Virus record (IMG/VR): IMGVR_UViG_3300046170_000299
Length of the DNA: 64,000 nt
Direction: 5' to 3' (one strand)
DNA from: a virus
Under the pieces are notes generated by a model. That model ran no database searches and was not told where the DNA came from. It worked only from the letters and a program-made list of their open reading frames with translations. Position numbers and translations under genes: made by a program. Shown in pieces: positions 11,564 through 39,535 of the stretch (its first letter is position 1; each line of letters opens with the position of its first letter).

Positions 11564-11609
11564 GGTAAACAAATGTAACGATCCCGTTTGGATTCCGTGA
11601 CATTGATAC

Positions 11610-11712
11610 GACGCCTTACCAAGACTAAACAGCGTCATTAAATAACAGTCTTTCATACCTCCGCCTGAGGGTGGCGAAGGAATATCATATCAGTGTTTCC
11701 CTGCACTCATAC
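11610..11712 (+). ncRNA. PhotoRC-II-like structured psbA leader
   Basis: Hairpins GACGC/GCGTC, CCTCCGCC-TGAGGGT-GGCGAAGG and AGTG/CACT directly 5' of psbA; resembles the PhotoRC-II motif as recalled. Confidence 0.7.
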
Positions 11713-15988: not shown

Positions 15989-16240
15989 ATGAAAATTCTC
16001 CATGAAAATTGTGATCCAAAACTTGCGAGCGATACATCGCTTCCATACACCGCATACTTGATTGAATACATTGATCAAGGAGAAACTAAATGGGACATTG
16101 CTATATCTACAAAGCAATCAGATATGTTTGATTACTATTGGGATAAATATAAAGCAGTTACCAACATGACTCAATCACAAGGTCGAGTGAGTCCTAAACT
16201 CTGGCAAGATCCAAACGCTAAACCTGCAAAGAAAAAATAA
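15989..16240 (+). CDS. conserved cyanophage hypothetical protein
   Basis: MKILHENCDP...LPYTAYLIEY. Confidence 0.8.
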   Translation: MKILHENCDPKLASDTSLPYTAYLIEYIDQGETKWDIAISTKQSDMFDYYWDKYKAVTNMTQSQGRVSPKLWQDPNAKPAKKK

Positions 16241-16512
16241 TGAGTGCATCACAAACAGGAAACTGGGCAATCTTTTATAGACGAATTGATGATCCACTTG
16301 TGTGGCATACGATGAGACTATGGAGAAGTGATGGTGTGCTTGTGTCTGCTAAAACATATGATCAAGTTTATAAATTTAGACGCTTCAGAGAAGCGTGGGA
16401 GTTTGCAAAGAATTTAATTACAGGTGGAGAATTAGGTATACCTGTTTATGATGCTGAAGTACGCCGTGTTTGTAAAGCTAAAGGTGAAGCATTCTACCTA
16501 GCAGGAAACTAA
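16240..16512 (+). CDS. hypothetical protein
   Basis: TAATG-coupled 90-aa ORF. Confidence 0.7.
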   Translation: MSASQTGNWAIFYRRIDDPLVWHTMRLWRSDGVLVSAKTYDQVYKFRRFREAWEFAKNLITGGELGIPVYDAEVRRVCKAKGEAFYLAGN

Positions 16513-16513
16513 T

Positions 16514-16529
16514 TGTATTAAGAAATACA
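16514..16529 (+). promoter_or_regulatory. NtcA-binding site
   Basis: TGTA-TTAAGAAA-TACA is a perfect extended GTA-N8-TAC, 2 nt upstream of a TTGACA -35. Confidence 0.65.
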
Positions 16530-16531
16530 GG

Positions 16532-16560
16532 TTGACAACGCATACATAGTATGGTATGCT
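16532..16560 (+). promoter_or_regulatory. sigma70-type promoter driving the riboswitch cassette
   Basis: TTGACA-17-TATGCT with TG extension; predicted start near 16567, exactly at the aptamer 5' end. Confidence 0.75.
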
Positions 16561-16566
16561 TATACC

Positions 16567-16613
16567 ATCGTTCATCCCACTCTTGGGTGGGACGCAAGTA
16601 AGTCGCGGAACGG
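16567..16613 (+). ncRNA. glutamine riboswitch-like aptamer (glnA/Downstream-peptide family), copy 1
   Basis: CGTTCA-[TCCCAC..GTGGGA hairpin]-CGCAAGTAAGTCGCG-GAACG; P1 is CGTTC/GAACG. Confidence 0.7.
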
Positions 16614-16615
16614 AG

Positions 16616-16799
16616 CCGTTCATCCCATGCTAGAATTATTATTCTATTCATCACTCACATGTGCTCAAGCTGATAGCATTATGCTACGGATGAGAACAAA
16701 CGAGAATATTCCTCCCGAATATAAGGTGGAATTGATTGAGGTCATGAAGGAATCAACACCTGAATGCTACCCTTGGGACGCAAACGACTAAAGGAACGG
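16616..16799 (+). ncRNA. glutamine riboswitch-like aptamer, copy 2, with an ORF inside the P2 loop
   Basis: CCGTTC (16616)/GAACGG (16794) P1; TCCCA (16623)/TGGGA (16774) P2; 3' core GACGCAAACGACTAAAGGAACG. Confidence 0.6.
16627..16791 (+). CDS. 54-aa protein ending WDAND, nested in aptamer copy 2
   Basis: MLELLFYSSLTCAQADSIMLRMRTNENIPPEYKVELIEVMKESTPECYPWDAND. Confidence 0.7.
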   Translation: MLELLFYSSLTCAQADSIMLRMRTNENIPPEYKVELIEVMKESTPECYPWDAND

Positions 16800-16829
16800 A
16801 TTAAAATCCAACTACTTTAGGAGTAACTC

Positions 16830-16997
16830 ATGAACACACTTAATCAAATCAAGAAGCAGATCATCAAGAGATCTGCTCTACACGACGCTCAGATTCTTCA
16901 CACTACATATCGTGGTGTTAAGTATGATACAGGTAGTGTAGAATCTAAAGAGACCCATGGCACATTCTGCTATCGTGGTCAACTTTATAAAAAGTGA
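16830..16997 (+). CDS. DUF4278 / GifB(IF17)-like small protein
   Basis: MNTLNQIKKQI...HDAQILHTTYRGVKY...HGTFCYRGQLYKK with two YRG motifs; RBS AGGAG. Confidence 0.75.
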   Translation: MNTLNQIKKQIIKRSALHDAQILHTTYRGVKYDTGSVESKETHGTFCYRGQLYKK

Positions 16998-17012
16998 TTA
17001 ACTTACTTATCC

Positions 17013-17040
17013 AGAGAGGGTTTTAACCCTCTCTTTTTTT
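17013..17040 (+). terminator. rho-independent terminator closing the riboswitch cassette
   Basis: AGAGAGGG-TTTTAA-CCCTCTCT plus T run. Confidence 0.85.
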
Positions 17041-17185
17041 ATGAGTATAAACCAGTAGGCAATAATATTCGTTGCAATTTTTCTTTAATTGAATGTTCCA
17101 AAAATAAATAGTGGTAGAATTATGCGAGGTGGAAAAATGAACCCTTCTCTCCCCTTTATTATGGTTTATTGCATGGAGAAAATTA

Positions 17186-17359
17186 ATGCACAATCTATTG
17201 TCCAGATCTCAACTTAACCAGTGGAGACACTTAGAAACTACTGTAGACACTTTGGAGGTGGAAAATCAAAAGCTCGATGACTACTATGAATGTTTAGTCG
17301 AATGCGATTTAGAAAACCAAACTTATTGTAAACGAATATGTAGAAAAATTTTAACGTAA
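17186..17359 (+). CDS. 57-aa protein with C-terminal Cys cluster
   Basis: MHNLLSRSQL...DDYYECLVECDLENQTYCKRICRKILT; RBS GGAG; has its own terminator. Confidence 0.75.
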   Translation: MHNLLSRSQLNQWRHLETTVDTLEVENQKLDDYYECLVECDLENQTYCKRICRKILT

Positions 17360-17365
17360 ATATCT

Positions 17366-17393
17366 AGAGAGGGGTTGCAACCCCTCTTTTTTT
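17366..17393 (+). terminator. rho-independent terminator (loop TTGCAA may double as a -35)
   Basis: AGAGAGGGG-TTGCAA-CCCCTCT plus T run; TATGAT 17 nt after TTGCAA. Confidence 0.75.
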
Positions 17394-17424
17394 ATGCTAT
17401 GATGATATCATCTGTAACATAAAT

Positions 17425-17607
17425 ATGGATAGAGAACGACTAAAACTCATTGTCAAAAACCTTAAATCTCTGGTCAATGCATTGGAGAGTGAAGTGTATT
17501 CTAATGTAGATGCATACAAATACGTTCATCCTTGGGACGAACATGTAAACAAAACAAAAGCCAGAGTATTAACTTCAGAGAACGACGATGACGGATATGC
17601 AGATTGA
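17425..17607 (+). CDS. conserved cyanophage hypothetical protein
   Basis: MDRERLKLIVKNLKSLVNALESEVYS. Confidence 0.8.
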   Translation: MDRERLKLIVKNLKSLVNALESEVYSNVDAYKYVHPWDEHVNKTKARVLTSENDDDGYAD

Positions 17608-38285: not shown

Positions 38286-38368
38286 GCGAGTATGGCGGAA
38301 TCGGTAGACGCATCAGACTTAAAATCTGCTGACCATTGGTCGTGGGAGTTCAAGTCTCCCTACTCGCA
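38286..38368 (+). tRNA. trnL: tRNA-Leu (anticodon TAA)
   Basis: GCGAGTA/TACTCGC acceptor stem, D-loop GGAATCGGTAGAC, loop CT-TAA-AA, long variable arm, GTTCAAG T-loop; CCA not encoded. Confidence 0.95.
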
Positions 38369-39183: not shown

Positions 39184-39255
39184 GCCTGATTAGCTCAGTG
39201 GTAGAGCAACGCTTTTGTAAAGCGTAGGTCGTCAGTTCAAATCTGACATTAGGCT
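39184..39255 (+). tRNA. trnT: tRNA-Thr (anticodon TGT)
   Basis: GCCTGAT/ATTAGGC acceptor, AGCTCAGTGGTAGAGC D-arm, ACGCT-TT-TGT-AA-AGCGT, GTTCAAAT T-loop. Confidence 0.95.
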
Positions 39256-39277
39256 TTAGAGATTGATCATCTCTATA

Positions 39278-39443
39278 GGGAGTGACTGAATAAACTTACT
39301 GGCAACCGCTGGTTAAGGTGATGAGACACAGGTGGTGCTGCTATCTTAGGATATGAATCGATTTACCAATCGGGTCTCAGGCAAAGATGAATTACTCTGT
39401 AGTAATGCCCGTCTTTTGTTGGTACACAGGAATCCAACCTCCC
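39278..39443 (+). ncRNA. manA-like structured RNA
   Basis: GGGAG/CTCCC closing stem; internal GAGAC/GTCTC, CGAT/ATCG, AAAGATG/CGTCTTT and TTGG/CCAA helices; follows a tRNA. Sequence resembles the manA motif as recalled. Confidence 0.65.
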
Positions 39444-39535
39444 ACCCTTTTTATTTGAATAATCGGTAGCTTTACGGCAGAGCTAGCATCTTGCAAACAT
39501 AACCGTACCCATTGTAATCTTGCACAAAAAATCAA

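Follow-up and report, generated by a model that had tools for sequence, protein, structure and literature searches.

The 64,000-nucleotide (nt) stretch of viral DNA analysed here (IMG/VR record IMGVR_UViG_3300046170_000299, hereafter the window) is part of a T4-like cyanomyovirus whose nearest database relatives, at ~75% identity, are Synechococcus and Prochlorococcus myoviruses. Between positions 16514 and 17040 it carries a compact cassette that runs from a promoter, through an RNA leader with the features of a glutamine riboswitch and two small open reading frames (ORFs), to an intrinsic terminator. A preliminary description of this region had listed an NtcA-type box, a promoter, an aptamer starting at the predicted +1, a second aptamer, a ribosome-binding site (RBS), a 55-amino-acid (aa) protein with YRG motifs and a terminator. 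All of these were found where it had placed them, but the second aptamer proved to be split around one of the genes, ORF1, so that the anatomy is not that of a plain tandem. We conclude that the cassette is probably a promoter-to-terminator unit in which a composite glutamine riboswitch, made of two strand-swapped cores with ORF1 nested inside, gates the translation of ORF2 through an anti-Shine-Dalgarno (anti-SD) helix in a glutamine-ON manner. The elements of the cassette are as follows.

16514-16529 (GTA-N8-TAC at 16515-16528), unstranded: NtcA-type box TGTA-N8-TACA, seen in the sequence 3 nt upstream of the -35
16532-16560, plus strand: sigma-70 promoter TTGACA-17-TATGCT with TG extension (-35 at 16532-16537, -10 at 16555-16560), 10/12 matches
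16550-16555, plus strand: alternative -10 TATGGT, 21 nt after the TAC of the box, which is class-II spacing
16569-16573, plus strand: outer P1 5' strand CGUUC, pairing with 16794-16798; covariation from C:G to U:A
16575-16592, plus strand: P2 hairpin of the outer core, UCCCAC/GUGGGA; covariation (CG 45, UA 6, AU 3, UG 2) and length variation
16593-16603, plus strand: junction CGCAAGUA (loop-E 5' strand) and P3 5' strand AGU; invariant in 56 sequences, fitting the RF01739 consensus in the compact relative L053
16608-16621, plus strand: hairpin H, GAACG-GAGC-CGUUC, an inner helix resembling P1; 100% paired, including double changes from G:C to C:G, and present in the minimum-free-energy (MFE) fold
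16623-16627, plus strand: inner P2 5' strand UCCCA, pairing with 16774-16778; its last A is the A of the ORF1 AUG
16627-16791, plus strand: ORF1, 54 aa, in the inner P2 loop; PHROG 504 (E 9e-31), annotated in relatives as T4-like gene cluster 430
16774-16786, plus strand: inner P2 3' strand UGGGA and junction CGCAAACG; also ORF1 codons W-D-A-N
16787-16798, plus strand: P3 3' strand ACU, loop-E 3' strand AAAG and outer P1 3' strand GAACG; from comparative alignment and covariation
16788-16820, plus strand: anti-SD helix CUAAAG (16788-16793):CUUUAG (16815-16820), enclosing the hairpin GGAU/AUCC (16798-16809); from covariation and MFE
16820-16823, plus strand: Shine-Dalgarno (SD) sequence GGAG of ORF2; AGGAG invariant in 56 sequences
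16830-16997, plus strand: ORF2, 55 aa, small DUF4278-type protein; PHROG 545 (E 1e-30), annotated in relatives as T4-like gene cluster 937
17013-17034 plus a T run (to 17040), plus strand: intrinsic terminator closing the cassette, conserved in relatives

The evidence base for RNA covariation consisted of ~150 related phage loci, using an alignment of 56 sequences and a variant-strand scan that gave >120 further contigs, 99 of them distinct. The whole layout, with two 5' strands, two cores, two 3' strands and ORF1 between, keeps its fixed offsets across ~80 IMG/VR loci and 370–420 GenBank cyanomyovirus records, and a compact contiguous form without ORF1 was found in two loci, L053 and L055. 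The neighbourhood varies among phages, in which the cassette follows nrdC, speD or nrdB. Since it is bounded by its own promoter and terminator and stands in varied neighbourhoods, the cassette behaves as a module.

In order to place the leader among known RNA classes, both glutamine riboswitch models of Rfam were used, as the preliminary description had suggested. The Glutamine-I model (RF01739, glnA RNA) matched the first aptamer at the expected +1, at 16567-16616, with 29.1 bits against a gathering score of 35 (E 3.8e-4 in a 701-nt search). The Glutamine-II model (RF01704, Downstream-peptide) has a gathering score of 33, and its matches scored 25.0 bits for the window and 26.3 bits for L053. 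Both window matches are thus sub-threshold, and a gathering-threshold Rfam search of the window returned no glutamine riboswitch. The second unit, taken as a contiguous stretch, had no Rfam match because it is not contiguous: its 5' half, CGUUCAUCCC (16617-16626), and its 3' half, UGGGACGCAAACGACUAAAGGAACGG (16774-16799), have ORF1 (16627-16791) between them. For L053, RF01739 scored 39.3 bits, above gathering, in a nested alignment only, which joins the first 5' strand to the last 3' strand, takes AGU...ACU as P3, sets A/GAAG opposite AAGUA and treats the rest as an insertion. The P1 helix CGUUC/GAACG and the P2 hairpin of RF01739 are both present in the phage RNAs and both covary, and the loop-E strands AAGUA (16596-16600) and A/GAAG, together with AGU/ACU, are invariant, align to RF01739 in L053 and show no covariation. 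The 3' hairpin of RF01704, whose GGAACGG loop forms a pseudoknot, was not found, the 3' stem columns being mismatched; the anti-SD helix does enclose GGAACGG, which amounts to a topological likeness to Glutamine-II only. Elsewhere in the window, at 17522-17541 within an ORF at 17425-17607, lies an isolated aptamer-like half, CGUUCAUCC-UU-GGGACG followed by AACAUG, which resembles a 5' strand and P2 hairpin without a core and also encodes VHPWDE.

The four P1-type strands of the leader can be paired in a nested or in a tandem manner, and the alignment discriminates between the two. In the 56 sequences, 99.8% of cells pair under the nested structure and no P1-type helix falls below 100%; for the tandem structure the figure is 99.2%, with 6 broken cells, and three sequences break both P1 helices. 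Over all parsed elements, the innermost P1 nucleotides of the four strands fall into three haplotypes: (C,G,C,G), with 53 elements, (C,C,G,G), with 47, and (U,C,G,A), with 6. Nested pairing renders all three Watson-Crick, whereas tandem pairing leaves two mismatches in each of the last two. The first 4 pairs of the inner P2, which surround ORF1, are broken in 0/106 elements (C:G 80, U.G 16, compensated U:A 10). MFE folding with ViennaRNA, with no constraints supplied, recovered hairpin H, the ORF1-enclosing helix and the anti-SD helix both in the window (-72.7 kcal/mol, z -2.3) and in L053 (-38.1 kcal/mol, z -4.3). The outer core carries all type-I features, namely P1, P2, the putative loop-E strands AAGUA and A/GAAG, and P3. 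Because of the compensatory haplotypes, the L053 alignment and the MFE folds, we read the leader as two interlocked cores that share P3. The comparison favours an RNA with two strand-swapped aptamer-like cores, in which the 5'-most CGUUC would pair with the 3'-most GAACG, the middle strands would form hairpin H and P3 would join the halves. In two IMG/VR contigs, L141 (positions 2240-2835) and L209, the loop of hairpin H contains an insertion of ~590 nt with a 192-aa homing-endonuclease gene (PHROG 314, E 9e-9; no Pfam match), after which the second 5' strand, ORF1, the core and ORF2 are intact. Such helix loops tolerate whole-gene insertions.

ORF1 ends with a UAA stop at 16789-16791, and its sole SD-like motif is the GGAG at 16612-16615, within hairpin H. 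Among 55 family members, 45, 29 and 51 of 58 columns vary at the three codon positions, and residues that never change are encoded by several synonymous codons. In the last five codons (W-D-A-N/H-D), which together with the stop are the aptamer core itself, no synonymous change occurs (GAC 55/55, GCA 55/55, AAC 36/36, GAC 55/55). On this codon-level evidence ORF1 is a real gene with an RNA-level constraint on its last codons. Its relatives come from phages and marine metagenomes only, and its AlphaFold model is a small helical hairpin (pLDDT 77); a search of NCBIfam gave no match for ORF1 or ORF2. Divergent and longer versions of ORF1 fill the inner P2 loop in L002 (S-RSM4) and L020; they measure 64 and 66 aa, one of them starts like a signal peptide, and both keep two cysteines 36 residues apart as well as the RNA-encoded DAND-stop tail. 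In L013 ORF1 ends before the core. The ORF1 frame is also open back through the first aptamer (16546-16626), and many gene callers report an 81-aa 'ORF1'; this read-through version is probably an annotation artefact.

The expression platform lies between the aptamer and ORF2. The variable pair of the anti-SD helix is A-U in 25, G-C in 25 and G.U in 6 sequences, with 0 mismatches, and in the enlarged set 77/77 distinct 3' regions pair, across 11–24 different intervening sequences per class. The variable A or G is at the same time the second base of the ORF1 stop (UAA or UGA). Since the CUAAAG strand shares bases with both P3 (ACU) and the loop-E strand (AAAG), the RNA cannot form the aptamer fold and the anti-SD helix at once. 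MFE folding without ligand pairs the 5' GUUCAU with AUGAAC (16830-16835) at the start of ORF2. Glutamine-I and Glutamine-II riboswitches are translational ON switches, whose ligand favours the CGUUC:GAACG helix over an alternative that occludes the RBS (PMC6212724, PMC6698751), and by analogy the arrangement described here is consistent with glutamine-ON control of ORF2. In such a scheme, the transcript would begin at the first base of the composite riboswitch and glutamine would stabilise P1, loop E and P3; the ligand-bound fold would withdraw the anti-SD strand and free the 5' strand from the AUGAAC of ORF2, and at high glutamine ORF2 would be translated. Considering that a ribosome terminating on ORF1 would occupy the anti-SD strand, translation of ORF1 should disrupt the aptamer and expose the ORF2 SD. 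Folding of the RNA would then compete with translation of ORF1, which would couple the two genes. Four loci (L003, L034, L074 and L085) have an extra hairpin insert of ~30 nt (GAAAAACGGAUCC...GAGAAGGUU...) between the aptamer 3' strand and the SD-side strand of the anti-SD helix, and there the ORF1 stop is 70 nt from ORF2.

The product of ORF2 has two YRG motifs (Y27RG and Y48RG) and aligns to PF14105 (DUF4278) with 23.7 bits (E 6.5e-5), below the gathering score of 25.3; some of its phage relatives carry a precomputed PF14105 match. An exhaustive profile search started from ORF2 reached picocyanobacterial proteins of 55–63 aa, including a cluster that carries the name 'DUF4278 domain-containing protein [Cyanobium sp.]'. 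When ORF2 was compared with these host proteins by hhalign, the probability was 99.6% (E 5.8e-24) over residues 1–55; one aligned host protein passes the PF14105 cut-off (27.1 bits) and another has DUF4278 as its NCBI name. AlphaFold models ORF2 as a long helix and a beta hairpin (pLDDT 80), and neither a PDB sequence search nor Foldseek on the model gave a usable match. We conclude from these profile alignments that ORF2 is a phage version of the small picocyanobacterial DUF4278 proteins.

The host DUF4278 loci (Cyanobium, Synechococcus RCC307 and MIT S9452) have a single Glutamine-II riboswitch (RF01704, 43–58 bits) and a perfect GTA-N8-TAC that ends 19–21 nt before it, overlapping the core promoter or transcription start site (TSS), which is a repressor position. 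The published picture of the host genes is NtcA repression combined with a glutamine-ON riboswitch (PMC6212724). Given the full-length homology of ORF2 and the NtcA box and single riboswitch at the host genes, the parallel with the host holds: an NtcA-type box, a glutamine riboswitch and a DUF4278-type gene, the combination named in the preliminary description, are all present in the phage and also at its closest cellular homologs in Cyanobium and Synechococcus. Set against its phrase 'Phage copy of the host gifB control logic', the cassette does parallel a host module; the leader, however, is not a copy (one Glutamine-II aptamer in the host versus a composite double core), and the control logic differs in the position of the box. 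In host loci L094, L101 and L114-L116 (~420-510), the genes start with AUGAACGU, a sequence with complementarity to the 5'-terminal ACGUU of each gene's Glutamine-II RNA, and the host start codon may be masked by the aptamer 5' strand when ligand-free. During cyanopodovirus infection, a DUF4278 gene of Synechococcus WH7803 was transiently up (log2 2.63) at the first time point (PMC7885011).

Upstream of the leader, TTGACA-17-TATGCT, a near-consensus promoter of early type, is the best sigma-70 match within 16200-17450 (10/12), and its predicted +1 is at ~16566-16568. TTGAC and TATAAT are kept in nearly all relatives. An exact GTA-N8-TAC occurs in 21/55 distinct relatives' promoters, compared with 1.4 expected (maximum 6 in 200 shuffles), and 20 of these 21 boxes fall at two offsets, centred ~-46 and -52 from the aptamer start, always upstream of an intact consensus -35. 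The N8 of the box is free to vary and the extended TGTA...TACA form is frequent among relatives. The window as a whole has 28 GTA-N8-TAC sequences (15.1 +/- 3.8 expected), nearly all within coding regions without a promoter, and the box at 16514-16529 alone is joined to a full -35/-10 promoter. TAN3T (TATGGT in the window) at class-II spacing was found only in the promoter subtype whose box abuts the -35; in the other subtype the box is ~6 nt further upstream. Compared with a class-II promoter, in which the box is near -41.5 and replaces the -35 and a TAN3T follows ~22 nt downstream, the window box is centred at ~-46 and the -35 is intact. The NtcA-repressed layout, with the box over the -10 or TSS, was not found in the phage, where the box ends 3 nt before the -35. 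The position of the box is therefore neither that of a class-II activator nor that of the host-gene repressor. Binding of NtcA is plausible. In cyanomyovirus genomes, Sullivan et al. (2010; PMC3037559) described GTA-N8-TAC in intergenic promoter regions and read it as exploiting the host nitrogen-stress regulon. The phage box described here shares this motif with their sites; that work links no site to a riboswitch or cassette, whereas here the box accompanies a consensus sigma-70 promoter at a non-canonical distance.

Several observations weigh against the interpretation of the cassette as an interlocked glutamine-ON leader with an NtcA input. Neither RF01739 nor RF01704 reaches its gathering score in the window itself. 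With just 3 bp, P3 never covaries and shows 5 G.U variants only; the inner core has no loop-E strands and therefore may not bind ligand; and the long-range helices must close a loop of ~150 nt which ribosomes may occupy. The GUUCAU:AUGAAC pairing comes from thermodynamics only, the synonymous-site test being too weak to count (50 AAC, 4 AAU). The haplotype counts are of sequences and not of independent events, and are inflated by relatedness and module recombination. The box is off the canonical -41.5 relative to the main promoter, its two offsets differ by half a helical turn, and 34/55 distinct relatives (~60%) lack an exact copy of it. Finally, the tandem fold may still form transiently, as a co-transcriptional intermediate. 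A plain tandem as the main fold would mean two independent glutamine aptamers in series, each with its own P1 and with ORF1 merely in the P2 loop of the second, giving a sharper, more digital response. Each unit does stand in its own CGUUCA...GGGACGCA...GGAACGG order, tandem glnA RNAs have been reported (PMC2864571), the 5' unit reaches its 29.1 bits alone, 99.2% of cells pair and, as the RNA is transcribed, the first unit would be the first to close a local P1. We nevertheless regard this arrangement as unlikely, and rejected it as the main fold because of haplotypes that are compensatory: (C,C,G,G), in at least 47 distinct elements, and (U,C,G,A), in 6–8, mismatch both of its P1 helices and are fully compensated by nested pairing. 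Moreover, the first unit lacks the GAAG loop-E partner and P3, the second lacks AGUA, and together they make up one complete type-I consensus. It is very unlikely that only the first core senses glutamine and that the second unit is a relic, kept for the C-terminus of ORF1, its initiation region and the anti-SD strand, with ORF2 expressed mainly through translational coupling to ORF1. The ORF1 stop does lie inside the anti-SD strand, 38 nt before the ORF2 AUG, a terminating ribosome would open the SD, and L013 shows that ORF1 can end before the core. However, the five core-overlapping codons lack synonymous variation while the rest of ORF1 varies freely, the inner P2 keeps pairing across ORF1 by means of U.G and compensated U:A pairs, the non-coding 5' half CGUUCAUCCC is conserved as well as the coding 3' half, and L053 and L055 retain the second unit without any ORF1.

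As regards the inputs and the target of the cassette, it is a serious possibility, if not the one we lean to, that the box does not mediate activation by NtcA at all, and that a constitutive early sigma-70 promoter is accompanied by a weak repressor or roadblock site or by a site for another factor. The consensus -35 and TG-extended -10, the box centres at ~-46 or -52 rather than -41.5, ~6 bp apart, and the 34/55 distinct relatives that keep the same promoter without an exact box would all fit this explanation. It does not sit well with the fifteen-fold enrichment and positional clustering of the box, its conserved GTA and TAC around a free N8 and the frequent TGTA...TACA form, nor with the TAN3T at class-II spacing in the promoter subtype of the window, and NtcA sites are a published feature of cyanomyoviruses (PMC3037559). 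The preliminary description had gone further and proposed that the ORF2 product, as a gifB/IF17-like factor, tunes host glutamine synthetase (GS), with NtcA and glutamine providing two-sensor control. A phage GS inactivating factor of the IF17 or IF7 type would agree with the DUF4278 lineage of ORF2, which is part of IF17 (PMC6212724), with the NtcA-plus-riboswitch control shared by host DUF4278 genes, and with the basic, Arg/Lys-rich composition that ORF2 has in common with these factors. However, DUF4278 corresponds to the N-terminal part of IF17, and GS inactivation does not require that part; the small picocyanobacterial DUF4278 proteins are without the GS-interacting part, and for marine picocyanobacteria GS control by inactivating factors (IFs) is so far ruled out (PMC6316151, PMC6212724). 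All 55 residues of ORF2 fall within the DUF4278 module, the small-DUF4278 alignment spanning it end to end, and the IF7-like C-terminal GS-interaction region with its essential arginines was not found. A search for longer relatives of ORF2 found no IF-type fusions, just tandem duplications and read-through gene calls, and ORF2 has no PDB match by sequence or fold. Since ORF2 is the DUF4278 module alone, GS tuning is unsupported, the gifB/IF17-like label was an overstatement and a GS-inactivating role is improbable.

Away from the cassette, the window also encodes ThyX and NrdC-like genes. It contains a PhotoRC-II RNA (54.8 bits, 11598-11693) and a manA RNA (170 bits, 39184-39448), the latter directly after a tRNA; a second tRNA is at 38286-38368.

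The ingredients of the cassette have precedents. Glutamine riboswitches in T4-like cyanophages, NtcA sites in cyanophages and the link between host DUF4278 genes, riboswitch and NtcA are already known. Picocyanobacterial DUF4278 genes with an NtcA box and a Glutamine-II riboswitch, such as Prochlorococcus MED4 PMM1846/Yfr6 (PMC6212724, PMC6316151), are represented here by host loci L086-L117. The phage cassette resembles these in its full-length homologous protein, its upstream GTA-N8-TAC, a leader of the glutamine-riboswitch kind that abuts the SD and an ORF start of AUGAAC. The host loci, however, have one pseudoknot-type aptamer, no nested gene and a box over the core promoter or TSS, whereas the phage has a type-I-like interlocked double element, the nested ORF1 and a box upstream of an intact -35. 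With Glutamine-I RNAs (RF01739), such as the leader of Synechocystis gifB (IF17) (PMC6212724), the phage RNA shares P1 (CGUUC/GAACG), a covarying P2 and, by alignment in L053, what would be the loop-E strands and a short P3, and in both the 3' aptamer strand competes with an RBS-occluding helix, Glutamine-I being a translational ON switch. Unlike Glutamine-I, the phage consensus is built from two distant halves, with a second core, hairpin H and a 165-nt gene inside the 'P3 insertion', and its junction is CGC...AACGG, as in type II, not CGG...AACGC.

Matches to glnA RNA are listed for T4-like cyanophages in Rfam, and one is reported in the S-CREM1 paper (PMC9964418). The S-CREM1 match, of 99 nt and 44 bits, resembles the nested alignment of L053; these listings give an Rfam match only and do not mention a DUF4278 gene downstream, an ORF nested in the RNA, swapped strands or an anti-SD platform. 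Tandem or cooperative riboswitches, such as the glycine riboswitch and tandem glnA RNAs (PMC2864571), have two ligand-sensing cores on one leader, as the phage RNA may do, but in the phage RNAs covariation supports an exchange of P1 strands between the cores over two self-contained aptamers, and a protein gene lies inside one helix loop. In the literature on ORFs inside aptamers, phage DUF4278 and the phage cassette, we found no description of the gene content, the nested gene or the strand-swapped topology.

As a tentative proposal, which we put forward as possible rather than probable, the strand-swapped double sensor may act as a three-way switch that sets ligand-dependent folding, ORF1 translation within the loop and ORF2 initiation against one another. 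Such a switch would partition two small proteins according to host glutamine, with a further 2-oxoglutarate/NtcA input, and ORF2 would mimic the host DUF4278 nitrogen-status effectors. Riboswitches are usually seen as compact non-coding leaders; here a whole protein gene lies within an aptamer helix and the two cores would exchange strands, a design that is kept in hundreds of ocean cyanophages and is missed by standard covariance-model scans. A single natural RNA would here integrate ligand sensing with translation and translational coupling. Marine viruses of an abundant group would carry their own read-out of host nitrogen, through glutamine and possibly through 2-oxoglutarate via NtcA, with which they would time their copy of a small host protein. 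The phage DUF4278 copy would also offer a compact handle on the role of DUF4278 in Prochlorococcus and Synechococcus.

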